42,113 nt of DNA, taken from the NCBI GenBank assembly GCA_964349475.1, contig CAYGGT010000006.1, forward strand, positions 1 to 42,113, given 5' to 3'. The position numbers and the translations under genes were made by a program. This document shows, piece by piece, positions 10,303-33,597 of this stretch. The stretch is from an uncultured Rhodospirillaceae bacterium (lineage in GTDB: Bacteria; Pseudomonadota; Alphaproteobacteria; Micavibrionales; UBA2020). Position 1 is the stretch's first letter. Every line of letters starts with the position of its first letter. The notes under the pieces are model-generated. The model had not been told where the DNA came from. It saw only the letters and a program-made list of their open reading frames with translations, and searched no databases.

Positions 10303-10400
10303 AAGCCGGCCGGTGTCAGGTGTTTTATTTCTTGCGTTTACGTTGACTCTTTAACATAGACATTGTAGCGTCAAAACCTACCCCCTTCGAAGGCAGCACC

Positions 10401-11213
10401 ATGACGGACGTTCCTAAAAAAATAGCCGATATCCTCCAGCAATCAAATTTGCAGGGGCAAGCGCTGAAGAACGCCCTGCGGGAGATCGTGCGCCAATCCT
10501 GGCCTGATATGCCGCCTTGGACAACGCTGGATACGCCCGTTATCGAAGAAGTGCAGAAAGCAACAGTCGGAAGCGGTGTCGTGCTGACTTTTGAGGAAAA
10601 CGGCATTCGAAAAGTTGTGCTGGGGGAGACAGGTGATCATTACAAGAAACCAGGAAGTACGGCAGCGGTGCCGCCTTCCTATATGATTCCAGGCGGATTT
10701 ATCAACCTCACCCGAACACCGGGAAGCAGCTTGGTCGCCGCATCAAAGGCCCCCGAAGATGCCAGAACCGGCGCTGCACGTGAAATTGAAGAAGAACTAA
10801 AAAGCATTGACGGCTCACCTTTGCTGAAAGTCGATCCTGCCCGCCTGAAACCCATGGACACGAAAACCCTGAGCCTGCCCTGGGGTGAAACGCGTCTGGT
10901 GATCGGGTTGATGCTGGATTTGACAGCGGCTGAAATTTTGATCGTCAAAAACCATGTTAAAAAACTTGGTCAGGACCCCGCCTACAAAACTGCTGCTGCT
11001 CTGCAAACCATCAATGGCGATTCCGGACTGCCTGAGGTCAGCAGCGTTTCAGTGTTTACATTAGAAGACGTCGCCCAGGGAAAATGCAATCTTTTACACA
11101 AGGATCAGCAATCTCTGTTTCAAGTCGTCAGCGAACATTTCGCTTCCAGCACCAAACCTGTCAAACCAAAAACAGGGCCGACGCCCGCAAAGAAACCGTC
11201 ACGCCGCCCGTAA
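10401..11213 (+). CDS. Variant Nudix-fold hydrolase-like protein with a Lys/Pro-rich C-terminal tail
   Basis: EDARTGAAREIEEELK fits the E-x7-R-E-U-x-E-E part of the Nudix box. The preceding PGG lies about 15 residues upstream instead of 5. The C-terminus is KPVKPKTGPTPAKKPSRRP. The 3' end overlaps the convergent argE-like gene by 15 nt. Confidence 0.5.
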   Translation: MTDVPKKIADILQQSNLQGQALKNALREIVRQSWPDMPPWTTLDTPVIEEVQKATVGSGVVLTFEENGIRKVVLGETGDHYKKPGSTAAVPPSYMIPGGFINLTRTPGSSLVAASKAPEDARTGAAREIEEELKSIDGSPLLKVDPARLKPMDTKTLSLPWGETRLVIGLMLDLTAAEILIVKNHVKKLGQDPAYKTAAALQTINGDSGLPEVSSVSVFTLEDVAQGKCNLLHKDQQSLFQVVSEHFASSTKPVKPKTGPTPAKKPSRRP

Positions 11214-14150: not shown

Positions 14151-14171
14151 TATGTAAAAACAAGAGGGTGG

Positions 14172-14200
14172 TTGTGAATTTTTTCCTGCTACACTATAAT
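14172..14200 (+). promoter_or_regulatory. Sigma70-type promoter candidate for dksA (TTGTGA-17 nt-TATAAT)
   Basis: The -35 is ttgtga (14172-14177), the spacer is 17 nt, and the -10 is tataat (14195-14200). It lies 44 nt upstream of the dksA ATG at 14244. Confidence 0.55.
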
Positions 14201-14243
14201 GACCAACTTCTATTTGTTTGTTCACTCCTTTAGGGAAACAGTC

Positions 14244-14687
14244 ATGAGTATGGCCTTGGAATCGACATTGACCATCTTGCCGCCGGATTATAAGCCGTCG
14301 GAAAAAGAAAAGTTCATGAACCCGGTCATGCTGGAATATTTCCGCCAGAAACTGATGCGCTGGCGCGCTGAGCTGCTGGTTGAATCGACGGAGACGATCA
14401 AGGAAATGCAGGAAGACAATCTGCAAAAGCCCGATATCGCCGACCGCGCCTCCGCCGAAACGGATCACGCCCTGGAACTGCGCACCCGCGACCGCGAGCG
14501 CAAGCTCATTTCCAAGATCAATGCCACGCTCGAAAAAATCGGCGAGGGTACCTACGGCTATTGCGAAGAAACTGGCGAACCCATCTCCGTCGCCCGGCTC
14601 GAAGCGCGGCCCATCGCAACGCTCGGGATCGAAGCGCAGGAACGCCACGAACGCCGGGAACGCACCCAGCGCGACATGCGCGAGTGA
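14244..14687 (+). CDS. dksA: RNA polymerase-binding transcription factor DksA (one-cysteine type)
   Basis: The coiled-coil tip motif DIADRA (DxxDxA) is present. The C-terminal region reads GTYGYCEETGEPISVARLEARPIATLGIEAQE, which aligns to CxxC-x17-CxxC with only the first Cys retained. The ATG at 14244 was chosen because the ORF-track start at 14199 lies inside the predicted -10 box. Confidence 0.85.
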   Translation: MSMALESTLTILPPDYKPSEKEKFMNPVMLEYFRQKLMRWRAELLVESTETIKEMQEDNLQKPDIADRASAETDHALELRTRDRERKLISKINATLEKIGEGTYGYCEETGEPISVARLEARPIATLGIEAQERHERRERTQRDMRE

Positions 14688-14735
14688 TAAACACTTGACA
14701 GATATCATATAAAAAAGGCATAAACAGGCCGACGT

Positions 14736-14810
14736 GGCGGGGTAGCTCAGGGGTAGAGCAGAGGAATCATAATCCTTTTGTCGGGGGTTCAAATCCCTCC
14801 CTCGCTACCA
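14736..14810 (+). tRNA. tRNA with CAU anticodon (elongator Met; Ile2/lysidine type not excluded), CCA encoded
   Basis: A cloverleaf can be drawn by hand: acceptor GGCGGGG/CCTCGCT, D arm GCTC-AGGGGT-AGAGC, anticodon arm GAGGA-AUCAUAA-UCCUU, and T arm GGGGG-TTCAAAT-CCCTC. The anticodon stem lacks three consecutive G-C pairs, so it is not an initiator. Confidence 0.85.
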
Positions 14811-17160: not shown

Positions 17161-18885
17161 TCAAATGTTCGCCTGCAGCGCCTGATGCGGCGCGTCAACC
17201 GTGACCCACCCCTGATGCCGGGCCTGAAAGCTGATGCCGCCCTGCATCTGCACCTGCTCCAGCCCCTGCGCGAAGCGTTTCATCAGCTCCTGCCGCATGT
17301 CGAAGGGTAGTTTTTCTTCCGTTCGCAGCACGATGTCAAAGTTCTTTTTCTGAATAAACCCGTCCAGCTGCATCTCGCCCATGCGGCTGAGGTGCAGATT
17401 GAGGAGAAAACGCGTCACAGGCTTTTTTTCCCCTTCTCTGCCGCTGTTTTCCCGGTCGTGCTGCTGGCGCACATAGAACTGCATCTGGCTCACTTGCTCG
17501 TCATGCAAAATCGGCATTGATAGAGAGCGCCATTCGTCGGCCAGCACTTCTTTCGACTGGCGGGATAATTTGGTGAAATCGCTGCCAAGGGTTTCGGCCA
17601 GATCTTTCTTTCCAGCATCGCGCAAGACCCGCAGCGTATTGTCGCCAAGCCAGCCATCGACAGCGCCAAGGCGCAGCGCGGCCAGAAAAAACAGCGCCGT
17701 CGGCACCAGCTGCGGCGTCGGCGTCGGCAGCGTGCTGCGGAGCGCCTGTGCCATCGCCGGATCCGATTTCTCCATCACCCGCAGCGCCTCATCCAATGCC
17801 GGCCATGCGGCGCTGGCAAGCGGGTTGAAAGGGCCGGCGGGGATGCCGGTTGACTTGTCGAACTGAAGTTTTTCAGCCGTCATCGGCGAAGCCTCGAAAA
17901 GAACGATGCTGCCAATCGCTATGCTCACCGGAGCTTTAAGGACGTAATGGCTGGTATCAGTTTTCAGGATCGGGAATCCGCCTGGTGTGACAGCTTCCAC
18001 CTTTGCCTGCTGCGGAAAGGCTTGGGGTTTTTCCGGCGGCACCGCCGCCAATTTATCCAAAACGATTTTTATATGCTCAGGCAGCGTTTCCGGAGGAAAT
18101 ACCTTCAGTATATTCATCTGATACATGTTTTTTGGCAGCGGCGCTGCTTGCCCGACAGTCGCCGTCAGTATATCCGCCGGACGCGACTTCAGACTTTCAA
18201 CAACTGATAAAAGGGTGTTGAGCGCGCTTGCCGGGGGGGCAATGCCCGTCCGCGTCAGTTTCACCTCATGGCCGATCGTGCCTTCACCCCGATCCTTTCC
18301 CAGCGGGAGAGGCGGAAGGGCTTTGCTCTGTCGTCTTTCTCCCTCTGGGGAAAGGACGGGATCGTTTGACGGATCGGTACTGATGCGGGTTGGTCCGATG
18401 ACCGGCGGTTTCGCCTCGGGCAACAGCAGAGCCGTGACCGTGACCCCTTCCCGCAACGGCGGCAACGAAGGCGGTGATGAAAGCGGCGGCGGCGCGGACA
18501 GTACCCCTAAAGATGCCGCGCGCCGGACAGATTTTTCCGGCTCTGGAATCGGAGATCGCAGAGCCGCGATAGTGGCGAGGGTCTGCAGTTTATCGGCATA
18601 GATTTTAACCGAAACCAAAGTTTCCAGCGGCAGAGAAACCGAAGACTTCACCGCCACCTCGCCCGCTGCTGTCTGAATGCGGATTTCCTGTGTCTGCGGG
18701 GTGCTGGCGATCACGCGGCCTTCAACCTGAACAGGCACGGGCGGCATCAGGACGTGCGGCGGCGCGCGCAGGACGAGCAGCTCCAAAAGCGTCAGCGGCG
18801 GTGCTGGTGTGACAGGAACGACAGGCGCCACGGGTGCCGTGGTTGTCGCTGGCGCAGTGGGGGGAAGCGGCGGGATCTCTGCCAT
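17161..18885 (-). CDS. fliK: Flagellar hook-length control protein FliK-like
   Basis: The N-terminus is Pro/Ala/Thr-rich. The C-terminal segment RFLLNLHLSRMGEMQLDGFIQKKNFDIVLRTEEKLPFDMRQELMKRFAQGLEQVQMQGGISF follows the FliK C-terminal (Flg_hook) pattern. It is the last gene of the flagellar block. Confidence 0.6.
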   Translation of the reverse strand: MAEIPPLPPTAPATTTAPVAPVVPVTPAPPLTLLELLVLRAPPHVLMPPVPVQVEGRVIASTPQTQEIRIQTAAGEVAVKSSVSLPLETLVSVKIYADKLQTLATIAALRSPIPEPEKSVRRAASLGVLSAPPPLSSPPSLPPLREGVTVTALLLPEAKPPVIGPTRISTDPSNDPVLSPEGERRQSKALPPLPLGKDRGEGTIGHEVKLTRTGIAPPASALNTLLSVVESLKSRPADILTATVGQAAPLPKNMYQMNILKVFPPETLPEHIKIVLDKLAAVPPEKPQAFPQQAKVEAVTPGGFPILKTDTSHYVLKAPVSIAIGSIVLFEASPMTAEKLQFDKSTGIPAGPFNPLASAAWPALDEALRVMEKSDPAMAQALRSTLPTPTPQLVPTALFFLAALRLGAVDGWLGDNTLRVLRDAGKKDLAETLGSDFTKLSRQSKEVLADEWRSLSMPILHDEQVSQMQFYVRQQHDRENSGREGEKKPVTRFLLNLHLSRMGEMQLDGFIQKKNFDIVLRTEEKLPFDMRQELMKRFAQGLEQVQMQGGISFQARHQGWVTVDAPHQALQANI

Positions 18886-18891
18886 GGCAGG

Positions 18892-19692
18892 TTACGCCAG
18901 AATTGTTTCGTTCACGCGCCGGGCGATCTTTTCGACGTCTTGCGCCGTTTCCGAATTCGGCGAGCGGGTCAGAAAAGGCGTCTGGGCCCGGATGGCTTCC
19001 TTGACGCGTTTGTCCTGACGGATAATACCGACCAGCGGCGGCGACAGTTTCAAAAAGTTTTTGCAGGCTTTGAGCAGTGTATTGTAAGTGCCCTCGCCCT
19101 CTTTGACATTGGCGGACATATTGATGACGACCTGGATATTGTCTCCATGCCCGGCGGCGTGGCTGAGCTTGATAAAGGCATAGGCATCGGTCAGCGCGGT
19201 CGGTTCATCCGTCGTGACGACGATGGTGGTGTCGGCGGCGGCGGCGATGAAACGCACCGTGCGGTCGATACCGGCGCCAAGATCCACAATCACCGCATCA
19301 TATTTCGGCACAACAGAGCGGATCTGTTGCAGCAATTCATTCAAGCGCTGCGCCGGCAGGGCGGAAAGGGAGCCATGGCCGGAACGTCCGGCGACAACAT
19401 CAAACCCGCCGTCTTCGCATCGTTCGATGACGCGGTCGATGCCGAGGCTGCCGTCGATCACATCATTCAAATCGCGCTTGGCCATCAGGCCCAGCTGCAC
19501 GTCGATATTCGCCAGCCCCAGATCGCCGTCGAACAATAAAACTTTTTTTCCGCTCTGCGCCAGCGCCTGGCTGAGACATATTGAAAACCACGTCTTGCCG
19601 ACGCCGCCCTTGCCCGACGCGACAGCGATCAGATGGCCCGTTGCCGAACCGGCGGTTTTTTTTGGTTTATTTGTTTTTGTTATTTCTGCCAT
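18892..19692 (-). CDS. flhG: MinD/ParA-family flagellar number regulator FlhG (FleN/MotR)
   Basis: It has the deviant Walker A ASGKGGVGKTW and the motif LLFDGDLGLANIDVQLG. It lies immediately downstream of flhF. Confidence 0.85.
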   Translation of the reverse strand: MAEITKTNKPKKTAGSATGHLIAVASGKGGVGKTWFSICLSQALAQSGKKVLLFDGDLGLANIDVQLGLMAKRDLNDVIDGSLGIDRVIERCEDGGFDVVAGRSGHGSLSALPAQRLNELLQQIRSVVPKYDAVIVDLGAGIDRTVRFIAAAADTTIVVTTDEPTALTDAYAFIKLSHAAGHGDNIQVVINMSANVKEGEGTYNTLLKACKNFLKLSPPLVGIIRQDKRVKEAIRAQTPFLTRSPNSETAQDVEKIARRVNETILA

Positions 19693-19701
19693 TCTTACAT
19701 T

Positions 19702-20631
19702 CTACTTCTTTTTGGGTGAATGAGGCATTAACAGGCCCGCCAGGGCGTCGGACGTCAGATGCAAAATCCCTTTGGCGACGGACGGCGTATGGCTCCCTTC
19801 TGTAAAAGAAAGTCCGGCGCGATCCGCCGCACTCAAGATTCCACCGAAATGACGAGAGAAATCAAGGCGCGTGGGAATGAGCCGCTTCACGCCCAACACC
19901 TCGAAGGTCAGCGCAATTTCCGCCGATTCCTCCGCATCTACCCCGGCGGGCAAGACCAGCGCCGCTTCCATATCCTCGACGTTGATCAGCTTGGCAAGAC
20001 ATTTCATCTCCTGCGGATCGAACGGATTAAGGCCGCCGGTGTCGATAATGACCTGCGTGCCGGTATTCGTTTTCGCCAACACGGCTTTCAGGCTCTTCGC
20101 ATCCTCCGCTTGCAGCAAGGGCAGGGACAGAATGTTCAGAAAGGCGGAAAGCTGTTCGATACCGCCCGCGCGCGCGATATCCGTGGTAATAACGACCATC
20201 TTTTTGTCATCCATCACGCCGCGCGCCGCAAGCTTTGCCGCCATCAATGTTTTACCGGCCCCCGGCGGGCCGACGAGGATGATCGGCTTCTGTTTCCTTT
20301 TGAGCGGCGCATCGTGAAAAGAGAAAGTTTTTTGCAGCGCCTGACCCAAAATCTTTTTCGGATCCTTGCCGGGCAGCGTCATGGCGATAGAAATTATTTT
20401 TTCACTGACGGCAGAAGGAACACGATGCCGCATCAATGCATCCGTGATCGTCTCGATAAAGCTTTCTGCCGGTTCATGCGGCAGTTCCTGGCGCTCCACT
20501 GCCGCGGTCACCTTGACCCACCCGCTCTCTTCTTCGCGGCTGGTGACGATGATCGCGTCTTCGCCGAGCGTCTTGCGCACCTGACGCATCGCTTCGGACA
20601 TCGACTTCGCATGGAAAGTTTTCAGTCTCAT
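19702..20631 (-). CDS. flhF: Flagellar biosynthesis SRP-type GTPase FlhF (short form)
   Basis: The N-terminus is MRLKTFHAKSMSEAMRQVRKTLGEDAIIV. G motifs are LVGPPGAGKT, IIDTGG and TRLD. It has a 4-nt overlap with flhA. Confidence 0.85.
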   Translation of the reverse strand: MRLKTFHAKSMSEAMRQVRKTLGEDAIIVTSREEESGWVKVTAAVERQELPHEPAESFIETITDALMRHRVPSAVSEKIISIAMTLPGKDPKKILGQALQKTFSFHDAPLKRKQKPIILVGPPGAGKTLMAAKLAARGVMDDKKMVVITTDIARAGGIEQLSAFLNILSLPLLQAEDAKSLKAVLAKTNTGTQVIIDTGGLNPFDPQEMKCLAKLINVEDMEAALVLPAGVDAEESAEIALTFEVLGVKRLIPTRLDFSRHFGGILSAADRAGLSFTEGSHTPSVAKGILHLTSDALAGLLMPHSPKKK

Positions 20632-22721
20632 GTAATCTGCGCGAGCGTGCGGATTTTGGCGCGGGGATGGATTTCATTCTGCGAGAGAACGACGGTCTGC
20701 GGCCGGAAACGCTCAATGATAGAGCGCACATAAGGGCGGATGCCAGGGCTGGTCAGCAGCGCCGGAGACTCGCCTTTCATCGCCAGATCTTCATAGGTGG
20801 CGCGAATGGACTGGATGAACTGCTGCAGCCGCGAAGGCGGCATGGCGAGTTGTTTTTCTTCGCCGGTCCCCGTCAGGGATTCGGCGAAAGATTGTTCCCA
20901 GTCGGCCGACAGCGTGATCAGCGGCATAACGCCCGATTTGTTGGCATGCTGGTCGCAAATCTGCCGCGACAGGCGCGTGCGGGCGTGTTCGGTGATCAGC
21001 GTGATGTTGTTGGTAAAGCCGGTCGCTTCGGCGACGCCCTCCAGGATGGTTGGCAGATCGCGGATCGATACGCGCTCCCCCACCAGGTTTTGCAGGACGC
21101 GCTGCAGGCTGGTGATGGTGATCTTGGCGGGGATAACATCCGCCACCAGCTTCTGATGGCTCTTCGGCAGTTCATCCAGCAGCTTTTGCGTTTCGGCATA
21201 GGACAGCAGATCCGACATATTGTCCTTGATGATTTCCGTCACATGGGTCGTGACGATGGTGGACGGATCAACGACGGTATAGCCCTTGAAGTGCGCCTCC
21301 TCCCGGTAATCGGGACTGATCCACATGGCGGGCAAGCCAAACGTCGGCTCGCGCGTGGCTTCGCCGGGCAGCTCGATCTTGTCGCCGGAGGGATTCATGC
21401 AGAGCAGCATGTCGGGACGGATATCGCCGCGCCCGGCTTCGATTTCCTTGATGCGGACGACATAGGCGGTGGCGGGCAATTGCAAATTGTCCTGAATACG
21501 GACGGAAGGGAGAATAAAGCCCATATCCTCGGCAAGCTGGCGACGAAGCCCCTTGATCTGGTCGGTCAGCTTGCCTTTTTCTGTACTGTTGACGAGCGGC
21601 AGCAGGCCATAGCCAAGCTCGATCCGCAGCGTGTCGATCGCAAGCGACTTGGAAATCGGCTCTTCCGCAACCGGCACTTTGTTGGCCTCGGCTTTTTCAG
21701 CTGCAGTAACAGCACCCGCTTTTTTCCGGGTTTGCTTGACGTTATGAGCGAAAAATGCCGATAAGCCCGCCATCAGTAAAAACGGAAAGGCGGGAATGCC
21801 CGGCAAGGCCGCCAGCACGGTCATCAACACGGCGCTCAGCGTCAGCGCCTGCGGATGGTTGCTCAACTGCGAGAACAGCGCCTTGTCGGTGGAGCCCTTA
21901 ATGCCCGCCTTCGAAACCAGCAGGCCGGCGGCAACCGACACGATCAGCGCCGGCACCTGCGTCACCAGCCCGTCACCAATGGTCAGATGCGTATAGGTTT
22001 CCGCGGCCTTGGAAAAATCAAGACCCTTTTGCCCCATGCCGATGATCATGCCGCCGATGATGTTGATGAACACGATCAGCAGGCTGGCGATCGCATCGCC
22101 GCGCACGAATTTGGAAGCACCGTCCATGGCCCCGAAAAATCCGCTTTCCTGCTCCAGCGCCAGACGGCGGCCCTTGGCTTCGGTTTCGTTGATGATGCCG
22201 GCGGACAGGTCGGCATCAATCGCCATCTGTTTGCCGGGCATCGCATCCAGACTGAACCTGGCGGCGACTTCAGCGATACGCCCCGCGCCCTTGGTAATAA
22301 CGACGAAGTTGACGATGGTCAGGATCGAAAACACGATCACGCCGATGACGAAATTATCCTGCATCACGAAACCGCCGAAAGCTTCGATAACGTGACCGGC
22401 GGCGTCCTTGCCTTCATGGCCATTCGCCAAAATCAAGCGGGTGGAGGCCAGGCTGAGCGATAACCGGATCATCGTTGAAATCAGCAGGATGCTCGGAAAC
22501 GTGCTGAGGTCCAGAGGTTTTTCAATGAACAGCACCGTCATCAGGATCAAAACCGAAAACGCGAGCGACAGGGCAAGCGAAATATCCAGCAGCCACGTCG
22601 GCAGCGGCAGGATCAGCACGACCAGAATGGCGACGATGCCGAGCGCCAGCGCCACATCGCCCTTCATCCTGAAAGGCGACGACGCCTGCCCGCCGAGTGC
22701 CGGTGCTGCCGGTTCAGCCAT
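20628..22721 (-). CDS. flhA: Flagellar type III export apparatus protein FlhA
   Basis: This is a 697-aa FHIPEP family protein. Motifs are RFSLDAMPGKQMAIDADL and FVRGDAIASLLI, with a large C-terminal cytoplasmic domain. Confidence 0.95.
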   Translation of the reverse strand: MAEPAAPALGGQASSPFRMKGDVALALGIVAILVVLILPLPTWLLDISLALSLAFSVLILMTVLFIEKPLDLSTFPSILLISTMIRLSLSLASTRLILANGHEGKDAAGHVIEAFGGFVMQDNFVIGVIVFSILTIVNFVVITKGAGRIAEVAARFSLDAMPGKQMAIDADLSAGIINETEAKGRRLALEQESGFFGAMDGASKFVRGDAIASLLIVFINIIGGMIIGMGQKGLDFSKAAETYTHLTIGDGLVTQVPALIVSVAAGLLVSKAGIKGSTDKALFSQLSNHPQALTLSAVLMTVLAALPGIPAFPFLLMAGLSAFFAHNVKQTRKKAGAVTAAEKAEANKVPVAEEPISKSLAIDTLRIELGYGLLPLVNSTEKGKLTDQIKGLRRQLAEDMGFILPSVRIQDNLQLPATAYVVRIKEIEAGRGDIRPDMLLCMNPSGDKIELPGEATREPTFGLPAMWISPDYREEAHFKGYTVVDPSTIVTTHVTEIIKDNMSDLLSYAETQKLLDELPKSHQKLVADVIPAKITITSLQRVLQNLVGERVSIRDLPTILEGVAEATGFTNNITLITEHARTRLSRQICDQHANKSGVMPLITLSADWEQSFAESLTGTGEEKQLAMPPSRLQQFIQSIRATYEDLAMKGESPALLTSPGIRPYVRSIIERFRPQTVVLSQNEIHPRAKIRTLAQIT

Positions 22722-24060
22722 GCGCGGACTCCGTTTCCTGCTGACCGTATTCTTTCAGCTTGTTACGAAGCGTGCGGATTGAAATGCCAAGGATCGTCGC
22801 CGCATGGGTGCGGTTGCCGAGGCAGTGATCCAGCGTGTTTAAAATCAGCTCGCGCTCCACATCGGAAACCTTGCGCCCGACCAGATGCGGCTCTTCCTCG
22901 ACGGATGCCTTTTCAAAAACAGTCTGGGCTTTTTCAACCACTTTCTGGACAGGAGAGATTTTCTGGCCGGACAGGTGAATGGAAGCCGCCTCGATCTCGC
23001 CCTCCTGCGACATCAGAATGGCGCGGTGCATGGTGTTTTCCAGCTCCCGCACATTGCCCTGCCAGCTGTGCGTTTTGAGCGTGCGCGCGGCCTCGGCGGA
23101 AATTTTCTTGGGCGGGATGCCGTTTTGCGCGCTGAATTTATCGGCAAACATCTGCGCCAGCGGCACGATATCCGCCGGACGCTCGCTGAGGGCGGGCAAC
23201 TGCAGATTGATGACATTGAGGCGGAAATACAAGTCTTCGCGGAAGTTGCCGGATTTGACGTAGGCTTCGAGGTCGCGGTTGCTGGTGGCGATCAGGCGGA
23301 TATCAATTTTAACGGGCTGCGTGCCGCCGATGCGGTCAATGACGCGCTCCTGAATGGCGCGGAGCAGCTTGGCCTGCAGCGCCGGATGCATCTCGCTGAT
23401 TTCATCCAGCAGCAGTGTGCCGCCGTTGGCTTCTTCGAACTTGCCGATCCGCCGGGCGACGGCGCCGGTAAAGGCGCCTTTTTCGTGGCCGAACAATTCC
23501 GATTCCAGCAGGCTTTCGGGAATGGCCGCGCAGTTGAGAGAGATAAAAGGCCCCCTGGCGCGCTTGCTTCTTTGGTGAATATAGCGCGACATGACTTCCT
23601 TGCCGGTACCGGACGCGCCGGTGATCAGGACGGTCGCATCGGCAGGCGCCACCCGGTCGGCCAAATGCAGGACGGACTTCATCGAAGGGTCGCTTGCAAG
23701 CATCGTGTTGTTTTCTTCCGTCACCGCCTGAAGAACGGCGGCGATCAGTTCAGCATTGGGCGGCAGCGGTATATATTCTTTCGCGCCCGCCTTGATGGCC
23801 TTGACGGCGCTTGCTGCATCGGTATTGATGCCGCAGGCAACGACGGGGATGACAAACCGCTCCGCTTTCAGTTGCTGGATCAGCGCCGCGATATCAAGCT
23901 TCACGTCCATCATGATCAGGTCGGCGCCCCGGCCGGACCGCAGCGCGCCCATGGCTTGCTCGATATCCTCGGTATGCATCACTTTCGCGCCGCGACCGAT
24001 GGCAATTTTACCGGCGGTGCTGATCTGCCCGTTCAGGCTGCCGATCATCATCAAGCGCAT
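22714..24060 (-). CDS. flbD: Sigma54-dependent flagellar transcriptional regulator FlbD
   Basis: It is collinear with Caulobacter FlbD as I recall it (MRLMMIGSLNGQ start). AAA+ motifs are GASGTGKE and GHEKGAFTGA, and the C-terminal Fis-type HTH is GNRTHAATILGISIRTLRNKLKEY. Confidence 0.9.
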   Translation of the reverse strand: MRLMMIGSLNGQISTAGKIAIGRGAKVMHTEDIEQAMGALRSGRGADLIMMDVKLDIAALIQQLKAERFVIPVVACGINTDAASAVKAIKAGAKEYIPLPPNAELIAAVLQAVTEENNTMLASDPSMKSVLHLADRVAPADATVLITGASGTGKEVMSRYIHQRSKRARGPFISLNCAAIPESLLESELFGHEKGAFTGAVARRIGKFEEANGGTLLLDEISEMHPALQAKLLRAIQERVIDRIGGTQPVKIDIRLIATSNRDLEAYVKSGNFREDLYFRLNVINLQLPALSERPADIVPLAQMFADKFSAQNGIPPKKISAEAARTLKTHSWQGNVRELENTMHRAILMSQEGEIEAASIHLSGQKISPVQKVVEKAQTVFEKASVEEEPHLVGRKVSDVERELILNTLDHCLGNRTHAATILGISIRTLRNKLKEYGQQETESAHG

Positions 24061-24075
24061 GATCTTATCCCTGCG

Positions 24076-24396
24076 TTACTGTGAGCGTTCTGATTTAACA
24101 ATCTCGGTCATCGTCACGCCCAGGCGGTCTTCGACGACAATGACCTCGCCGCGCGCGACAAGACGGTTGTTCACGTATATGTCGATGGCTTCGCCGACTT
24201 TGCGGTCCAGATCGACGACGGCGCCCCGGCCCAGTTTCAAAAGCTGGCTCACCGGCATGGTTGCCTTGCCGAGCACGGCGGAGATTTGGACCGGGATATC
24301 GTAAATCGCGTCGATATCCTTCTTGCGCGTCTCGACAGTCGCGCTTTGTTTCACTTCTTCGAATTCGACGTTTTGCGTTGGATCGTTGGGTGTCAT
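24076..24396 (-). CDS. fliN: Flagellar motor switch protein FliN
   Basis: The SpoA/FliN core reads IYDIPVQISAVLGKATMPVSQLLKLGRGAVVDLDRKVGEAIDIYVNNRLVARGEVIVVEDRLGVTMTEIV. The ATG at 24396 was chosen because it avoids overlap with fliH and follows GAGAAAG. Confidence 0.85.
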   Translation of the reverse strand: MTPNDPTQNVEFEEVKQSATVETRKKDIDAIYDIPVQISAVLGKATMPVSQLLKLGRGAVVDLDRKVGEAIDIYVNNRLVARGEVIVVEDRLGVTMTEIVKSERSQ

Positions 24397-24413
24397 GGTT
24401 TTTTCTTTCTCTG

Positions 24414-25031
24414 TTAAAGTTGTTCCTGATTCAGACTGGCAATCGCTTTGGCGCATTCGTTTTCAATCTGCGCAAAAAGCCTCTCGTAGAGCCGTTCCAC
24501 GCCGCCGTCCGCCCATTCCACCCGGCAGTCCGTGGACGGAAGGCTGTCTTCCGCCAGCAAAATGACCCGGCCGGCGTACCCTGTTTCAAGCGCCAGAGCA
24601 TCCATGCGGATTTTCAAAGACTCCATATGGATCGTCGGCACGGTAACGGCAATCCGCGGCTCATCCTTCCGCGCTGCAACGGTTTGCAAAATGACATGCT
24701 CGATTTCAGCCAGAGCATAGCGCAGGGAAAATTGCGGCAGCAGCTTATGCGCAATGCGCATGGCGATCTTCGTCGCATCAGCGCATTTTTCCACTTCACG
24801 GCGATCCTCCGCCGCCGCCAGTTTTTCCACAAGACCCAGCACTTGCTGAAGAAGGCCCGCAAGGCGTTCTTCCTGTTGTTGCCGGGTTTCTTTCACGCCC
24901 TCGGCCTTGCCCAGCGCGAAGCTTTGGGTCTTGGCCAGCAGCAGTTGCTCTTCAGTGTAAATTTCCCGGGCCTTCCCCTGCCCTTCATTGAAGTTGTTTG
25001 TGTCGAACAGGAATTTTTTAGCGTCCGTCAT
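24414..25031 (-). CDS. fliH: Flagellar assembly protein FliH (FlbE-type)
   Basis: The 205-aa ORF lies between fliG and fliN, where FlbE/FliH sits in the Caulobacter fliF operon. It has a charged coiled-coil N-terminus and the motif [10 protein letters not shown] in the C-terminal domain. Confidence 0.65.
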
Positions 25032-26044
25032 ATGACGAGCTCATCATCGTCTTGCGACGTCAGAATGGTGATTTCGCCACGGTCGGCAAGGTCTTTGGTG
25101 ACGGTGACGATTCCCTGCTGCGCTTCCTCGACATCCTTGAGGCGGACGGGCCCCATGGCGGCGATGTCTTCTTTCATCATTTTCGCGGCGCGCTCGGACA
25201 TGTTGGAGAAGAACAGGTCTTTCATCGCATCAGAAGCGCCCTTCAGCGCCAGCGGAAGTTTTTCCTTGTCGGCGGTGCGAATGATGGTCTGCAACGCGCT
25301 CGGATCCAGCCTTGCCAGGTCGTCGAAGGTGAACATCAGGCTGCGGATTTTTTCGGCGGAATCCGGATTGCGCTCTTCAAGCGACGTCATGAACTTGCCT
25401 TCCACGGCGCGTTCCAGGTTGTTGAAAATTTCAGCCATGATTTCATGAGAATCGCGGCGGTTGGTGCGCGCCAGGTTGGACATGAACTCCGTGCGCAGCG
25501 TGCGCTCGACGTCGTCGAGAACATCTTTCTGCACAGCCTCCATCCGCAGCATCCGCATGACCACTTCCATCGCAAAGCCTTCGGGCAGCATCGCCAATAC
25601 CCTTGCCGCGTGCTCCGGCGTGATCTTCGAGATGACGACGGCGACGGTTTGCGGGTATTCTTTCTGCAGATAGCTTGCGAGAATGTCTTCGTTGACGTTG
25701 CTCAGCTTCTCCCACATCGTGCGGCCGGCGGGGCCGCGAATTTCTTCCATGATGTTATCGACTTTGTCCTTGCCGAGCACGCGGGCGAGAAGCCGTTCGG
25801 TCGAATCCAGCGAACCGACAAGAGAGCTGGTCGAACTCATGCTTTCGGCGAATTCGACAAACAGCCGCTCCGTCACGTTGGCGCTGACCTTGCCCAGCGA
25901 CGACATCGTCTGCGAAATCTGCATGATTTCATCTTCGTCGAGCTGTTCGAACACCTTCGCCGTATGCTCTTCACCAAGCGACAGCAGCAGGATGGCCGAT
26001 TTCTCGGTGCCGCTCAGGGTACGGTAGTCTTCGCGAACGCGCAT
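25028..26044 (-). CDS. fliG: Flagellar motor switch protein FliG
   Basis: FliG family motifs are [24 protein letters not shown] and the C-terminal torque helix region. It lies immediately downstream of fliF. Confidence 0.95.
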
Positions 26045-26047
26045 TTT

Positions 26048-27742
26048 TTAACTCTCCTGTGACATCCATGAACGAATGACCGCCACCGTTTCTCCCGGAT
26101 GGTTCGTCACCAGCTCGCTGATTTTCTGAACGGAGGATGCCTTCACCTTGCCCTCCACCTGAGACATATCAATCATGCTGTCGAGTTCGCCGCCGTCAGC
26201 CGGGCCCGACAATTGCGCCTGAGCGCCGCCGGATGTCAGCAGCGTTTTTTCTTCCGCCAGCGTGCTCCCCGCCTGATGCGCAATTCTGGCGGATGACTGC
26301 ACGATATGGGTGGCCAGCGGCCTTAAGACCAGCAGCACGACAAGGATGGCGACGATGCTGAGCGTGACTGTTTCGGCAATGCCCAGCAGGTCGGTCTTTT
26401 GAAAGCCCATCAGCATGCCATCGTCTTTCAGGACGCTTTCCGGCACGATTTCTTCCAGGAACTGCATGTTCACGACCTGAAGCGCGTCGCCCCGGCCTTC
26501 ATCAAAGCCGACGGCGGATTTAACAAGGGCGGTGATTTTATCCAGCTCAGCCTGCTCGCGCGGCACATATTGCTTGGGTGCCTGCCAGTCTGCGGGGGCT
26601 TCCGGCGGCGCCACGGCCTTGGCATCGGTTTCATAACGGCCGTCGATCAGCACGGCAACAGAAATTTTCTGCACCTGCCCGCTGGCGCGCACCATGTTCT
26701 CGATGGTTTTGCTGATTTCATAGGTGGTGACTTCTTCCGTGCGGTTGTTTTTGCTGCCCGGCAGATCGGACGCCCCCGCCGCGGCAGCGGGATCGGCGGG
26801 CAGTCCCGGCAGATTGTTTTCAACCGATACCGACCCGTCGTTGCTGGCACCCGACGTATCCGCGCTTTCCTCGTTGGTCGTTTGGGTGGATCTCACAACC
26901 TGCCCTTCGGGATTGTAAGATTCGGAGTTGCGGTTGACGACATCAAAATTCATCTCCGCCGCGACCGTCGCGCGTACCTTGCCGTAGCCGACAATCCGCC
27001 CCACCATATCTTCGATTGAGCGGGCGACGCGCCTTTCGTATTTTTGCCGCATGTCCTCGCCGCTGCGGGCGGCGGCGCCGTCGGCGGCCTCTTCCTCGCC
27101 CCGCGCAAGCAAGGCGCCGCTCTGATCGATGATGGCGACGTTGGCCGCTTTCAACTTTGGCACGGAAGCGGCGACGAGATGCTGAATCGCCTGGATCTGC
27201 TCCTGTCCGATGCCGGCGCTGTTACGCAGGTTTAAAAAAACGCTGGCGCTGGCAGGGCTGTTTTCTTTGCTAAACAGTTCGCGCTGCGGCAAGACCAGAT
27301 GCACGCGGGCGCTGCGAATCGAGTCTATCGTTCCGATCGTGCGCGACAGTTCTCCCTCGATGGCGCGGATCTGATTGATGTTCTGGACAAAACTTGTCGT
27401 GCCGAACGTTTGTTTCTGATCGAATATTTCGTAGCCGACGGAGCCCTGGCGCGGCAGGCCTTCCTGTGCCAGAAGAATACGCGCCCGGCCGATTTCTTTC
27501 TGGGGCGCCAATATCTGGGTGCCATCCGTGTTCAGCCTGTATGTCACTTTGGCCGCGTCGAGCTTCGCCGCAATCTCCGTCGCGTCGGCAGTGGACAAAT
27601 TGGCGTAGAGCAATGTCATGCCCGGCGCGTTGGAACGGACCGCGATAAAAATAAAAAATATCACCAGTCCGAAAAACGTCAGCAACATCACCGCGAGTCG
27701 CCCCGCGCCCAGATTTTTTAATGTTTCAAAAAGCGAATCCAC
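26048..27742 (-). CDS. fliF: Flagellar M-ring protein FliF
   Basis: This is a 564-aa YscJ/FliF family protein (N-terminal TM, LLAQEGLPR, VHLVLP, C-terminal TM). The start codon is GTG at 27742, preceded by AAGGGGA. Confidence 0.95.
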   Translation of the reverse strand: MDSLFETLKNLGAGRLAVMLLTFFGLVIFFIFIAVRSNAPGMTLLYANLSTADATEIAAKLDAAKVTYRLNTDGTQILAPQKEIGRARILLAQEGLPRQGSVGYEIFDQKQTFGTTSFVQNINQIRAIEGELSRTIGTIDSIRSARVHLVLPQRELFSKENSPASASVFLNLRNSAGIGQEQIQAIQHLVAASVPKLKAANVAIIDQSGALLARGEEEAADGAAARSGEDMRQKYERRVARSIEDMVGRIVGYGKVRATVAAEMNFDVVNRNSESYNPEGQVVRSTQTTNEESADTSGASNDGSVSVENNLPGLPADPAAAAGASDLPGSKNNRTEEVTTYEISKTIENMVRASGQVQKISVAVLIDGRYETDAKAVAPPEAPADWQAPKQYVPREQAELDKITALVKSAVGFDEGRGDALQVVNMQFLEEIVPESVLKDDGMLMGFQKTDLLGIAETVTLSIVAILVVLLVLRPLATHIVQSSARIAHQAGSTLAEEKTLLTSGGAQAQLSGPADGGELDSMIDMSQVEGKVKASSVQKISELVTNHPGETVAVIRSWMSQES

Positions 27743-27862: not shown

Positions 27863-27990
27863 CATTTATAATTTGCTCTACACTCTCATAATAACAGACG
27901 ATATTTTACAATATGATAATAAACCGCTGTTTTTGATCGTTATTTTAGAAAAAATACGATTCCACCAAGTAACCACAAGTAAACAATAGA

Positions 27991-28016
27991 TTAACAAATA
28001 GTAAATAATGTATTAA
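27991..28016. promoter_or_regulatory. Three CtrA-like half-sites phased at 11 bp (TTAA-N7-TAAA-N7-TTAA)
   Basis: The half-sites are ttaa (27991-27994), taaa (28002-28005) and ttaa (28013-28016). They sit in an AT-rich region between fliF and the flaG-like gene. Confidence 0.3.
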
Positions 28017-28097: not shown

Positions 28098-28508
28098 ATG
28101 GTCGATGCTGTCAACATAGTTTCTGTTCAAAACAATACTTCGAGACTGTCGTCTCAGAGGCCGTCTGTTTTTGTACCCGTCACGCTTTCCGCGCCCGTAC
28201 AGCTAGAATTCACAACCTCTCACATCCGTGTCGATAACCTGCAGAACGTGGCTATACTGGAGTACCTGTCCAGCAACGGTGAAGTTGTGCGGCAATACCC
28301 GTCGCAAGCACAGATCAGCGCCTTTAAACGCGCCGAGCAGCTTCAGACGGTGCCGCAGTCATCTCCTGACACCGATTCGGCGCCGCAGATCGCAACAGCG
28401 GAACCGCCTGCCGATGCCCCGGCACCGCCACCGGCGGCCCCTTCTGCACCTTCGCCATCCGTTTCCGGCGGGACTGCTTCACCTGCCCCCCAGTCAATCC
28501 TGGCTTAG
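28098..28508 (+). CDS. flaG: FlaG-like flagellar protein with a Pro/Ala-rich C-terminal tail
   Basis: LEFTTSHIRVDNLQNVAILEYLSSNGEVVRQYPSQAQISAF matches the FlaG family core pattern (xxF, then V/I-x-V, then GEV[IV]RQ[IY]P). It is divergent from fliF. The RBS is GGTGGGAG. Confidence 0.6.
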   Translation: MVDAVNIVSVQNNTSRLSSQRPSVFVPVTLSAPVQLEFTTSHIRVDNLQNVAILEYLSSNGEVVRQYPSQAQISAFKRAEQLQTVPQSSPDTDSAPQIATAEPPADAPAPPPAAPSAPSPSVSGGTASPAPQSILA

Positions 28509-28656
28509 TCGCCGCATTTTTGCGCCGAACCCCCATCAGAAATTAAAAAATCTCACATTCTAGTGAATTTTCATAGTTTGTTAATCGTCATGTAGGATAA
28601 TAGTAATTGTCATACAGTAAAAACATATCGACGTCGAGCCGGAGAATCGGAAGCCC

Positions 28657-29613
28657 ATGATTCAACAAAAACGCGTTCATACAGACTTCCAACCGCCGCC
28701 GGCAGCGCCCCTGCAGGACAGCTTTTTTAGGGCCGTCTCGCGGACATTCAGAAGCTATAAACTGGGCGACTTGCTGGTCGCCAGCCGGACGATCAGCAGC
28801 GACCAGCTGAACCGGGCCCTGACCGAACAGGCGGCAAGCGGCGAACAGATCGGAAAAATCCTCATCCGCCAGGGCGCGGTATCGGCGGTGCAACTGTACC
28901 GTAAGCTGGCCGAGCAATGGTGCCTCAAAGCATCCGCCGCCGGCATCACCCTGATCATGCAGGCCACCTCTCCTGCACCGGCGCAGGCTGCAGGCGCGCT
29001 CTCCACCCCCTTCACCCTCGCGGCGGCAACAATCCCGACCGCTGTCAAAGCAGTGGCTGTCCCCGAACGGTATCCTGAATTATTCGGCTCCACGGAAGTG
29101 AGGTCCGAAGATATTTCCGCTTTCAAAAAATGGACCAGCGTCATCCAGAAATTCGAAGACCAGGCACAGACAATATCCGCAAGATCTCCCCGCGTCATGG
29201 TGTGGAAAGCAGAGATCGAGAAGCTCCGCGGCAAATCTCAACAGGAACAGATCGAAGGCGTGAATAACTTTCTCAATGCCATTCCCTATATAGAAGATAT
29301 CGACAACTACGGCAAAACCGACTACTGGTCCACGCCCATCGAATTCCTGACGCGCGGCGGAGATTGCGAAGACTTTGCGATTGCAAAATACGCCTCGCTC
29401 CGCGCCCTCGGCTTCTCGGCTGACCAGCTGCGCATCGCCGTCGTGCAAGATGAAGTCAAGAATATCCCGCACGCACTCCTGATCGTCTACTCCGACGGCG
29501 GCAACTTCGTCCTCGACAATCAGAACAAAAGAACCGAAACCATCACCGCCGTCACCCGTTACAAGCCGATCTTCTCCATCAACAGCACCAGCTGGTGGCT
29601 GCACCGGGCTTAG
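28657..29613 (+). CDS. Fusion protein: MshEN/T2SSE_N-like N-terminal module plus transglutaminase-like cysteine proteinase (BTLCP/LapG family)
   Basis: The N-terminal part reads KLGDLLVASRTISSDQLNRALTEQ-AASGE-QIGKILIRQGAVSAVQLYRKLAEQ. The C-terminal part carries DYWSTPIEFLTRGGDCEDFAIAKY (Cys), IPHALLIV (His), FVLDNQ (Asp) and KPIFSINS..WWLH. Confidence 0.7.
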   Translation: MIQQKRVHTDFQPPPAAPLQDSFFRAVSRTFRSYKLGDLLVASRTISSDQLNRALTEQAASGEQIGKILIRQGAVSAVQLYRKLAEQWCLKASAAGITLIMQATSPAPAQAAGALSTPFTLAAATIPTAVKAVAVPERYPELFGSTEVRSEDISAFKKWTSVIQKFEDQAQTISARSPRVMVWKAEIEKLRGKSQQEQIEGVNNFLNAIPYIEDIDNYGKTDYWSTPIEFLTRGGDCEDFAIAKYASLRALGFSADQLRIAVVQDEVKNIPHALLIVYSDGGNFVLDNQNKRTETITAVTRYKPIFSINSTSWWLHRA

Positions 29614-32574: not shown

Positions 32575-33597
32575 TTAGGGCTTTGGGGCAGCAAGACGAC
32601 GGTTGGTTTCAGCGCGCAAAGCTTCAACCGATTCGCTTATCGTCGCGTGCCCGGCGTAAGAGGCTGGCCCCTCGCCGGCGATATTGTCCAGGAAGTATTT
32701 GCGGGCGTTGTCCGTCGTGAAATCTATCGCCCCCTTGCCTTCTTTGGTCAGAAGCGCGCTCATCACCGCGTTGGCTTTCAAGCCGGCGCCGCTCGATGCA
32801 TAAAGATCGGCATCGGATACAATCGCCGCCATCTGCGTCAACCTGCTGTCCGACAAGGCAGAAAAATCGTTTTTCGGGTCAATGGCGGCAAAATCCGGCG
32901 TTGATCCGTTCCGCTGCGCCTGCGCCACCGCTTTCAGTATCGCATGCGGGCCGTTCGGGCTCGTGGTCATCAGGATGGTGTGAATCTTGTCAATATCCGG
33001 CCCGGTCAAACCCGCTTCCTGAAGCAGCGGCGCCATCAGCTCGAAAGATATTTGTTCGTTCAGCATCGGCTGGTCTTTTGGATTGCCAACGCCCTCATGG
33101 CCCAGATCATGCCCGATCGCCGCGATAAACGTCAGCGCTTGTTCCTGCTTGGTCAGCGCTATCGCGCCTGTTTTCACCTGCAGCAGATTGGCCGTCACCG
33201 CCGCAACATCAAGGTAATGAAACTGGTTGTGGTAATCCGGCGTTACGGCGGCTTTCATCTCCGCCCGCACAGCCACCAGAATCAGTGCCTTGTATTCCGG
33301 GCTTTTTTTATCAAACCCCATCTTTTGCGCGTGGTAAACAGCCAGCGCCGGCAAGCTCGGACGGCCCGTTTCCCTGTACTGGTCAATGTGTATCTGGGTA
33401 AATTTGTCAGCGGTTGCAAAAGCGTCGCTGCCGGTATGAAAAAACACGCCGCCCTTTTCTTCAAAATCCTGATCGAGCGCCTGTATCTCCCGCAACGTGT
33501 TCTGCACGGCCGGGCTGCCAAGAGCAGCAGGGTTGTCTTTCAGGACACGGTTGATTTCTCTTGCCACACGTGCAGCGGACGACAAAGGCTTTGACAT
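32575..33597 (-). CDS. HD-superfamily phosphohydrolase with a class I (eukaryote-type) cyclic-nucleotide phosphodiesterase signature
   Basis: PDYHNQFHYLDV matches YHNxxHxxDV. AAIGHDLGHEGVGN matches the class I PDE signature H-D-[LIVMFY]-x-H-x-[AG]-x2-[NQ]. VSDADLYASS matches xADLSNP. Together these supply the His, His-Asp and Asp metal ligands. Confidence 0.55.
   Translation of the reverse strand: MSKPLSSAARVAREINRVLKDNPAALGSPAVQNTLREIQALDQDFEEKGGVFFHTGSDAFATADKFTQIHIDQYRETGRPSLPALAVYHAQKMGFDKKSPEYKALILVAVRAEMKAAVTPDYHNQFHYLDVAAVTANLLQVKTGAIALTKQEQALTFIAAIGHDLGHEGVGNPKDQPMLNEQISFELMAPLLQEAGLTGPDIDKIHTILMTTSPNGPHAILKAVAQAQRNGSTPDFAAIDPKNDFSALSDSRLTQMAAIVSDADLYASSGAGLKANAVMSALLTKEGKGAIDFTTDNARKYFLDNIAGEGPASYAGHATISESVEALRAETNRRLAAPKP

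Follow-up and report, generated by a model that had tools for sequence, protein, structure and literature searches.

A conserved fusion of an MshEN_N-type module, an internal signal-like segment and a BTLCP cysteine protease in Micavibrio-related Alphaproteobacteria

Introduction

Can a protease of a family that works outside the cytoplasm be placed under the control of a cytoplasmic nucleotide messenger within one and the same polypeptide? This question is raised by a gene at positions 28657-29613 of contig CAYGGT010000006.1 (GenBank assembly GCA_964349475.1, an uncultured Rhodospirillaceae bacterium), of which the whole stretch of 42,113 nucleotides that was analysed is called here the window. 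The product joins a module resembling the MshEN_N receptors of cyclic di-GMP (c-di-GMP), a signal-peptide-like segment and a bacterial transglutaminase-like cysteine proteinase (BTLCP, Peptidase_C93). The control of periplasmic BTLCPs by c-di-GMP is textbook inside-out signalling, of which two forms are known, LapD-LapG and DvhD-DvhG, both with a separate transmembrane receptor. A minimal 53-residue receptor fused upstream of the signal sequence of the protease would add to these an independent third solution, and a much simpler one.

The Fusion Gene and Its Family

The fusion had been proposed in a sequence-only reading of this stretch, in which the open reading frame (ORF), its 318 residues and every sub-coordinate were given exactly. 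Its features are the following.

28657..29613, + strand: whole gene, MshEN_N / signal-like segment / BTLCP fusion, 318 aa, ATG start, stop codon included (ORF list and sequence)
28657..28758, + strand: residues 1-34, poorly conserved N-terminal tail (family alignments and AlphaFold2, AF2)
28759..28917, + strand: residues 35-87, predicted MshEN_N-type c-di-GMP-binding module (NF053729, PDB matches, AF2, Foldseek)
28759-28830, + strand: residues 35-58, motif I KLGDLLVASRTISSDQLNRALTEQ, in register with the 24-residue motif
Residues 59-63: spacer AASGE, between motifs I and II
Residues 64-87, ending at nucleotide 28917: motif II QIGKILIRQGAVSAVQLYRKLAEQ
28918..28989, + strand: residues 88-111, signal-peptide/signal-anchor-like segment, with W-C-L-K, hydrophobic h-region ASAAGITLIMQATS and c-region PAPAQA
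Residues 92-113: stretch ASAAGITLIMQATSPAPAQAAG
28990..29091, + strand: residues 112-145, flexible linker rich in Ala, Thr and Pro (AF2, family alignments)
29092..29610, + strand: residues 146-318, BTLCP (Peptidase_C93) domain with LapG-like fold (Pfam, PDB, Foldseek)
29362..29370, + strand: Asp236-Cys237-Glu238, catalytic Cys and two calcium-site acidic residues (GGDCEDF; aligned to LapG GDCED)
29470..29472, + strand: His272 of the catalytic triad (IPHALL; aligned to the LapG His, invariant in the family)
29515..29517, + strand: Asp287 of the catalytic triad (VLDNQ; aligned to the LapG Asp, invariant in the family)

Judged by its homologues, the three-part fusion is genuine and conserved across a Micavibrio-related clade of Alphaproteobacteria, and it is no artefact. 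A homologue search gave 1366 matches, and the best 120 of these are all 293-379 aa long, nearly all of them covering 93-100% of the query. More than 540 relatives were found in a scan with one genome per GTDB species; the best 80 of them all run from residue 35 or earlier to about residue 316. Their sources are metagenome-assembled genomes labelled Micavibrio, Alphaproteobacteria, Rhodospirillales or (mis)binned Bdellovibrionales, together with the complete genome of the cultured M. aeruginosavorus HCB189, whose member scores 45.6 bits against NF053729, the NCBIfam model for the MshE-related c-di-GMP motif, over the cut-off of 38. Both this motif model and the LapG-like model were matched at E<=0.001 by 95 of 95 close and 72 of 72 distant homologues; with 167 of 167 scanned carrying both parts, the fusion in cis, which the earlier reading had described for this gene, is a property of the family. 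Public annotation names this family merely 'transglutaminase-like cysteine peptidase'.

In a library clustered at 50% identity, the full fusion is present in about 25-30 representative clusters, and further down the same listing stand BTLCPs of 200-280 aa that align only from about residue 100-145 onward. The earlier reading had asked whether homologues normally start at the hydrophobic segment. The N-terminus is conserved within the family, and it is the non-fused BTLCPs that do start there. That two genes were joined by a frameshift or an assembly error, or that the start codon was wrongly extended, is practically out of the question. Nothing speaks for it other than the odd position of the signal-like segment in the middle of the ORF, whereas the identical protein with the same neighbours occurs on two other independently assembled contigs, which makes three assemblies with the same ORF. 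Moreover, full-length homologues number in the hundreds, complete genomes included, the ORF has no Met just ahead of the h-region, and the N-terminal module is conserved at protein level.

Within the N-terminal tail, residues 1-21 are modelled by AF2 with a predicted local distance difference test (pLDDT) score below 50, and a helix is modelled at 23-30; this short helix, conserved in the family alignments (SFFRAV, residues 22-30), connects the tail to the sensor module. Used as a homologue query, the 91-residue N-terminal peptide gave no matches, and a 93-column profile of 36 N-terminal regions retrieved only proteins shorter than 190 aa and no members of its own family; the word-indexed search seems length-biased in both cases.

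The Predicted c-di-GMP-Binding Module

By profile and predicted fold, residues 35-87 belong to the MshEN_N class, with the turn Gly at position 44 replaced in this copy. The tandem motif used for the comparison is (R/K/L)LGxx(L/V/I)(L/V/I)xxG(L/V/I)(L/V/I)xxxxLxxxLxxQ, taken twice with a 5-residue spacer, 53 residues in total (PMC5013675, PMC11731258), and the module fits this layout of 24 + 5 + 24 residues. The MshEN-like repeat, already recognized by eye in the sequence-only reading, is borne out by NF053729, which is matched with 58.4 bits against a cut-off of 38, residues 35-87 corresponding to profile positions 1-53 of 53. NfrB, a glycosyltransferase activated by c-di-GMP, is matched more weakly in NCBIfam, through its MshEN part. 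Among sequences in the PDB, the module matches GSPII-B of Thermus PilF (2.7e-7) and V. cholerae MshE (5htl, 6.9e-5).

The predicted structure agrees with these matches. The AF2 model, built on 95 homologues and with a mean pLDDT of 83, places helices at 36-42, 48-61, 65-71 and 77-104, and the module is predicted as a four-helix unit with pLDDT of about 95 over residues 41-80. In Foldseek comparisons, it superimposes on c-di-GMP-bound MshE (5htl_B) at 0.8 Å over 57 columns and on PilF GSPII-B (8pdk, 9gl5, 8pfa) at about 1.0-1.2 Å, the range for the MshE and PilF complexes with c-di-GMP being 0.8-1.3 Å across 52-57 columns. Residues 35-87 were thus modelled as the MshE/PilF-like unit for which structure prediction had been recommended as a check.

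In MshE, the ligand is contacted by the Leu-Gly at motif positions 2-3, by both Leu of L-x3-L and by the terminal Gln (PMC5013675). Both motifs have these contact residues, which are L36-G37, L51, L55 and Q58 in the first and I65-G66, L80, L84 and Q87 in the second. Counted among 200 homologues, G37, L51, L55, G66 and Q87 are each kept in 199, L84 in 195 and Q58 in 176; the contact positions are 88-100% conserved in sequences whose other parts are only 37-75% identical, with values down to 37-45% for the remainder of the protein. We think that this near-invariance of contact residues, while the rest diverges, is the strongest argument that the family binds c-di-GMP, as its sequences suggest.

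Position 1 of the motifs deserves a comment, as K35 had been listed earlier as a deviation together with R44 and Q64. The last two are real, and T45 has to be added to them. K35 is no defect, because GSPII-B of Thermus PilF, with Lys and Leu at the two 'Arg' positions, yet shows 6 nM binding, and the consensus at position 1 was extended to R/K/L (PMC11731258).

The Protease Domain

The C-terminal domain is, by sequence and alignment to LapG, a member of the BTLCP/Peptidase_C93 family with an intact Cys237-His272-Asp287 triad, as had been read from the sequence, and calcium dependence is predicted for it. Pfam PF06035 (Peptidase_C93/BTLCP) is matched over residues 193-302 with 77.7 bits against a cut-off of 27 (E 1.2e-21), and the LapG structures 4u65 and 4fgo (P. 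fluorescens, Legionella) are matched by sequence in the PDB at E~1e-22. LapG is also ranked first by Foldseek, with template modelling (TM) scores of 0.66-0.69 on the target and 34-36% identity. AF2 gives pLDDT values of 88-98 in the alpha/beta domain, from residue 146 to the end, and packs neither the preceding helix nor the sensor against the protease. In the family alignment, D236 and C237 are invariant and E238 is conserved in at least 90%; DvhG was inactivated by mutating the equivalents of these residues, D316/E318 and C317 (PMC13090378).

The name 'LapG-type' does not hold if it is taken as orthology. Every one of the 167 proteins scanned in the family reaches E<=0.001 against the LapG model, the best value being 1.5e-35. 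The 318-aa protein scores 109.3 bits against the LapG equivalog model NF045674, whose cut-off is 320, and the two members with scores shown for this model, at 109.3 and 99.3 bits, are both far under it. By this profile measure the protein is no LapG orthologue, and neither LapD nor a LapA-like adhesin nor type 1 secretion is found in the annotated neighbourhoods.

The Internal Signal-Like Segment and the Linker

Between the two domains, 91 residues from the N-terminus, stands a segment with the n-h-c layout of a cleavable signal peptide, from which we infer its topology and cleavage. K91 provides the positive N-flank and is followed by an h-region of about 14 residues (A92-S105) and by a c-region of Pro plus AxA (P106-A-P-A-Q-A111); A111 would be the last residue before the cut by signal peptidase I. 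The weakly hydrophobic stretch ending in AxA, which had been noticed between the halves, is present, and it is conserved as well. K/R91 is near-invariant among 200 homologues, and the uncharged run that follows it in the fused family is 18 residues long at the median. In 192 of the 200 sequences an [AVST]-x-A ends 16-24 residues after K/R91, versus 123±6 in composition-matched shuffles, and Asp or Glu is common just after the AxA site. In the AF2 model, the helix at 77-104 is continuous and comprises both sensor helix 4 and the h-region, so that the contact residues Leu80, Leu84 and Gln87 are predicted to directly precede the membrane-interacting segment.

The non-fused relatives suggest where this segment comes from. 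The closest of these BTLCPs, such as P0122, is 63% identical in the protease and begins with MKKFSLTKAFVSAATLGVVALHTAFAQPATA, a textbook Sec signal peptide that aligns exactly on the internal WCLKASAAGITLIMQATSPAPAQA of the query; F-T-L-A-S and Y-P-x-L-F-G come next in both. On the basis of this alignment with N-terminal signal peptides, the internal segment would be the ancestral signal peptide of a Sec-exported BTLCP that gained a sensor module upstream of it.

As a signal peptide, the segment would be a weakened one. Its best 12-residue Kyte-Doolittle (KD) value is 1.38 in the query, and the means are 1.46 in the query clade and 2.04 in the Micavibrio clade; for the signal peptides of 122 non-fused BTLCPs, the mean is 2.47 and the 5th percentile 1.73. 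The internal segment of the fused family is thus systematically less hydrophobic than the signal peptides of ordinary BTLCPs (P0122-P0269), which fits a conditional use of it. In the query, the 19-residue KD maximum is 1.25 and the h-region includes Gln, Ser and Thr. A stable transmembrane anchor is disfavoured in the query clade, the uncharged run being of about 18 residues and weakly hydrophobic.

The linker that follows is largely disordered in the model, with pLDDT below 50 at residues 105-131, and contains conserved short motifs, F-T-L-A-A/S-A in the query clade and then Y-P-x-L-F-G. In the Micavibrio clade, the corresponding motif is D-(V/I)-P-A-x-phi-x-phi, again followed by Y-P-x-L-F-G. 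These motifs loosely resemble the 'DP ... [T/A/P]AAG' substrate site of LapG and, from this likeness in sequence, may represent a pseudosubstrate or an autoprocessing element. A conserved di-alanine site of that kind in F-T-L-A-A-A was considered and rejected: the Ala-Ala is not kept in the Micavibrio clade (L-V-Q-T-A, L-A-S-A-S), and AF2 leaves the linker undocked.

Genomic Neighbourhood

In the window, the gene stands after a flagellar block, 915 bp from fliF, and from this position a motile-to-sessile context had been deduced. Synteny was studied by tblastn of FliF, the 136-aa ORF next to the gene, HldE and pyruvate kinase on 87 loci, with 85 related loci outside the window. Among these 85, adjacency to fliF is found only in two other assemblies of the window's own sequence, and in none of the 80 species-representative genomes do flagellar genes adjoin the fusion gene. 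The neighbour that is kept in the family is hldE (PfkB plus cytidylyltransferase, ADP-heptose synthesis), which lies divergently upstream in 74 of the 85 loci, about 200-260 bp from the fusion gene (L003-L087, e.g. L051:8293-9723 and 10001-10852). Pyruvate kinase is nearby in 52 of them, almost always downstream. The closest relatives with annotated context (69%, 66% and 62% identity) have hldE upstream as well; no hldE lies inside the 42 kb window, the pairing having been lost in the window's lineage. Since the flagellar neighbourhood is not conserved, the position of the gene gives no ground for a motile-to-sessile role. What synteny there is would point, if anywhere, to the envelope, through hldE and the heptose synthesis of lipopolysaccharide (LPS), and not to flagella.

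Downstream of the gene come tRNA-Pro, a homologue of NDUFS4 and polysaccharide-modification genes, with genes for a polysaccharide pyruvyl-transferase, a GT25 protein and a methyltransferase at 0.6-3 kb. In neither the 42-kb window nor the annotated surroundings of six relatives was a GGDEF, EAL, PilZ, LapD-like, giant-adhesin or type 1 secretion gene found.

The flagellar block itself (18892-27742, - strand) is compact and contains genes for a MinD/ParA-type ATPase (flhG-like) and an SRP54-type GTPase (flhF-like), flhA, a gene for a sigma-54 activator with receiver domain (flbD-like), and fliF, confirmed by Pfam; four further ORFs in it were assigned to fliN, fliH and fliG by position and sequence only. 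Between fliF and the fusion gene lies the 136-aa ORF (28098-28508, + strand) that had been called flaG, a name that is not supported: it has no Pfam match, FlaG included, even at E<=1. The C-terminal third of this ORF is a low-complexity tail rich in Pro, Ala and Ser, and among the loci examined the ORF is kept only on the window's own contigs.

In the three loci nearest to the window's clade (L007:5192-6949, L088:2995-6094 and L008), a PilB-type ATPase with an MshEN of its own is encoded just beyond hldE, a few kb from the fusion gene, and in L088 it is adjoined by pilC. This ATPase may be the donor of the MshEN_N module, or simply a neighbour.

Proposed Mechanism and Alternative Explanations

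In our opinion, it is fairly probable that the protein links cytoplasmic c-di-GMP to a periplasmic protease within one polypeptide, through an in-cis MshEN route that controls delivery of the protease. The sensor would stay in the cytoplasm and the protease domain would be translocated (N-in, C-out). Passage of the protease across the membrane is expected because the characterised BTLCPs (LapG, HvyA and DvhG) are extracytoplasmic and calcium-dependent; LapG and HvyA are exported, the latter by Sec (PMC4241560), and DvhG is a membrane-anchored BTLCP (PMC13090378). c-di-GMP would be contacted by Leu80, Leu84 and Gln87, next to the h-region, and its binding might alter the engagement, insertion, cleavage or retention of the weakened signal sequence. 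As an outcome, the amount of active protease reaching substrates in the periplasm or envelope would be set by c-di-GMP. The lineage has c-di-GMP metabolism, as M. aeruginosavorus has a cNMP/EAL protein (PMC6717892). If the segment is not cut, an Alg44-like type II membrane protein would result, and transmembrane or positional effects would be possible.

A stricter version of the proposal is that c-di-GMP gates export, its binding deciding Sec engagement and the cut by signal peptidase in such a way that protease is delivered at one c-di-GMP level; we regard this version as unlikely. We know of no c-di-GMP effector for which the principle of a second-messenger-controlled signal peptide has been described.

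Several observations weigh against the proposed in-cis control of delivery. Pfam gives nothing significant in the N-terminal part of the 318-aa protein, and PF05157 (MshEN/T2SSE_N) is not matched even at E<=10. The profile check that had been suggested, with a T2SSE_N/MshEN and a BTLCP model, thus gave Peptidase_C93 as expected and missed PF05157; the match for the N-terminus came from NF053729. PF05157 describes a longer MshEN domain that includes a T2SSE_N1 subdomain, absent here, and we do not take the miss as a refutation because NF053729, the PDB sequence matches and the fold comparison agree. More specific to the window's copy are its three deviations: R44 replaces the Gly of the turn between helices 1 and 2, T45 fills a hydrophobic position, and motif II starts with Q64. 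Compared with a pattern in which position 10 is the turn Gly and position 1 is one of R/K/L/P/N, the copy departs once in each repeat: motif I has the accepted K35 with R44 instead of Gly, and motif II has the off-list Q64 with Gly present (G73). Of the 200 homologues, 168 have Gly at position 44 and 12 have Arg, and position 64 is Pro, Gln, Arg or Lys across the family. Because of R44, T45 and Q64, the window's copy may bind more weakly than its relatives, and c-di-GMP binding is somewhat less sure for it than for the family. The membrane step is also exposed to doubt. The KD value of the query h-region lies under the 5th percentile of ordinary BTLCP signal peptides, which leaves export or insertion uncertain; the c-region of Micavibrio-clade members also has Lys or Arg, which blurs the positive-inside signal. 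Moreover, a cut by signal peptidase at AxA would part the sensor from the protease and leave only export or processing, not protease activity, open to regulation. Past the identity of the domains, everything, that is, binding, topology and processing, is what we infer from sequence.

The alternatives differ in which of these steps they give up. The N-terminal module could be a structural relic that does not bind c-di-GMP, at least in this copy, and serves only as a cytoplasmic extension, for instance for protein contacts, positioning or stability of a protease anchored in the membrane. The three deviations and the PF05157 miss would suit it, and binding has been lost by few substitutions in many MshEN domains, XpsE for example, according to Wang et al. 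(PMC5013675). We consider it rather improbable, as the conservation of the contact residues is hard to explain without ligand binding, the NF053729 score is 20 bits over the cut-off, K, L and P are found at position 1 of proven binders, and R44 occurs in 12 family members too. It is more improbable still that the whole protein is cytoplasmic, with a helix that neither inserts nor translocates and a transglutaminase-like enzyme regulated allosterically by c-di-GMP, even if the poorly hydrophobic h-region of the query clade, with its polar residues, and the lack of a signal peptide at the N-terminus would agree with it. Against such a protein stand the positional homology of the segment to true N-terminal signal peptides of the nearest BTLCPs, the conserved AxA and the clear hydrophobicity of the segment in the Micavibrio clade. 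The calcium site is conserved here, as in characterised BTLCPs that work outside the cytoplasm, and AF2 leaves both helix and sensor unpacked on the protease.

Other alternatives concern the substrate. A Lap-type adhesin-release switch, in which the LapD function is fused on LapG and a LapA-like type-1-secreted adhesin is cut at a di-alanine in a motile-to-sessile decision, looks improbable to us. Its basis is real: LapG is the nearest structure to the protease, the triad and calcium site required for LapG activity are conserved, c-di-GMP control of BTLCPs arose at least twice, with LapD and with DvhD, and in the window fliF is near. However, the LapG equivalog score, the lack of genes for a LapD-type (HAMP-GGDEF-EAL) receptor, a giant adhesin or type 1 secretion in the neighbourhoods searched, the presence of hldE, and not of flagellar neighbours, upstream at most related loci and the 'flaG' without a FlaG match all disagree with it, and alphaproteobacterial BTLCPs such as HvyA have other targets (PMC4241560). 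The same architecture could instead act on envelope polysaccharide or LPS biogenesis, as for HvyA, with direct c-di-GMP sensing replacing the cell-cycle control of HvyA; we hold this as a tentative possibility, which is compatible with the in-cis mechanism preferred above since it concerns the substrate. A precedent is HvyA, a Sec-exported BTLCP from an alphaproteobacterium, whose gene belongs to a capsule locus and whose presence is limited to one type of cell (PMC4241560). Besides this precedent, the divergent hldE, needed for the ADP-heptose of LPS, and the downstream pyruvyl-transferase, GT25 and methyltransferase genes favour such a target, and, MshE apart, the N-terminal module comes closest in profile comparison to the MshEN domains of NfrB and EpsG, which are exopolysaccharide enzymes. 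On the other hand, the hldE synteny is perhaps just inherited gene order, capsule export genes are not adjacent, and the substrate of HvyA itself is not known (PMC4241560). We would give an HvyA-like target in the envelope no lower a likelihood than a LapA-like adhesin.

Comparison with Known Systems

The logic of the proposed control is that of LapD-LapG and DvhD-DvhG, yet the protein is a member of neither system, and no partner receptor was found in the neighbourhoods examined. LapD-LapG of Pseudomonas fluorescens, Legionella and Vibrio also consists of a calcium-dependent BTLCP whose access to substrate is set by cytoplasmic c-di-GMP in inside-out fashion, which for the present protein is a prediction. 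Its protease shares with ours the fold, the Cys-His-Asp triad and the D-C-E calcium site, at the identity and TM scores given above. The receptors are different: LapD is a separate HAMP-GGDEF-EAL membrane protein that captures LapG in the periplasm, whereas here the candidate receptor is a 53-residue MshEN_N placed in cis upstream of the signal sequence. In DvhD-DvhG of Desulfovibrio vulgaris, c-di-GMP controls a BTLCP through another receptor, of dCache-PAS-HD-GYP type, and DvhG is held at the inner membrane through a hydrophobic N-terminal helix, which a disordered linker follows (PMC13090378). This system differs in that the receptor is again separate, DvhG has no cytoplasmic sensor domain, and both are encoded with adhesin and type 1 secretion genes.

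The HvyA protein of Caulobacter crescentus, compared here by its published description, is a BTLCP from an alphaproteobacterium; it is exported by Sec and shares the triad and the calcium residues (PMC4241560). It is confined to the low-c-di-GMP swarmer (G1) cell, where it blocks capsulation, thus acting on the envelope and not on a Lap adhesin (PMC4241560). What sets HvyA apart from the fused family is an ordinary signal peptide at the N-terminus, a location in a capsule locus, and control that works through transcription and proteolysis instead of a fused nucleotide sensor.

On the receptor side, MshE (V. cholerae), PilF GSPII-B (Thermus) and NfrB (E. coli) have the same tandem 24-residue motifs with 5-residue spacer, four-helix fold and contacts. 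The module here is of the MshEN_N-only form, as in EpsG, Bd2402 and a predicted MshEN_N-Peptidase_M23 protein. MshEN_N fusions have been catalogued with AAA_31, CheX, REC, CheA, TrxB and Peptidase_M23, and Peptidase_C93/BTLCP is not among them (PMC5013675 Supplementary Table 4). A further difference is that the last motif helix runs here into a signal or transmembrane segment, which is not described for the characterised MshEN proteins, these being cytoplasmic ATPases, kinases and glycosyltransferases. The overall order of parts recalls Alg44, a single chain in which a c-di-GMP receptor at the cytoplasmic N-terminus is followed by one segment that crosses the membrane and by an effector domain in the periplasm; in Alg44, however, the receptor has the PilZ fold, the segment is a stable transmembrane anchor without a signal peptidase motif, and the periplasmic domain is non-enzymatic.

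Full-text literature searches (MshEN with transglutaminase or LapG; BTLCP; Micavibrio with c-di-GMP) returned no description of this fusion. The architecture is apparently undescribed, in keeping with the sequence-only reading, while its component parts are already known. The placement of a nucleotide receptor right against a signal sequence hints at a form of second-messenger control that may be new, and it raises the testable question of whether a nucleotide messenger can regulate export, processing or membrane retention through the region of the signal sequence. To our knowledge, little is known of c-di-GMP outputs in the Micavibrio clade of epibiotic predators, for which this family is a candidate effector, with M. 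aeruginosavorus available in culture. If it is true that the module binds c-di-GMP and thereby changes the delivery of the protease, it could serve as a compact, portable switch.

Other Features of the Window

Some further observations concern the remaining genes. A 340-aa ORF (32575-33597, - strand) matches class I 3',5'-cyclic nucleotide phosphodiesterase of the eukaryote type (PF00233) with 32.9 bits, over the first 51 profile positions only. Two long ORFs have no Pfam family: one of 574 aa (17161-18885, - strand), which directly adjoins the flhG/flhF-like genes, and one of 599 aa (12993-14792, - strand), whose true start must lie further in because its 5' end overlaps a tRNA-Met (14736-14810, + strand).

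The region immediately ahead of the fusion gene was also read.

28509..28656, + strand: AT-rich intergenic region upstream, with a possible Shine-Dalgarno GGAG / GGAAG 5-16 nt ahead of the ATG (read from sequence)

A sigma-70 scan of the + strand upstream of the gene gave no convincing match and no clear promoter. Sites resembling the CtrA box, TTAA-N7-TTAA with 1 mismatch, are found at 28570-28584, 73 nt upstream of the ATG of the fusion gene, and as three overlapping copies at 27980-28016, in the AT-rich intergenic region between fliF and the 136-aa ORF. In the whole window, there are 15 such 1-mismatch sites versus 7.3±2.3 expected.

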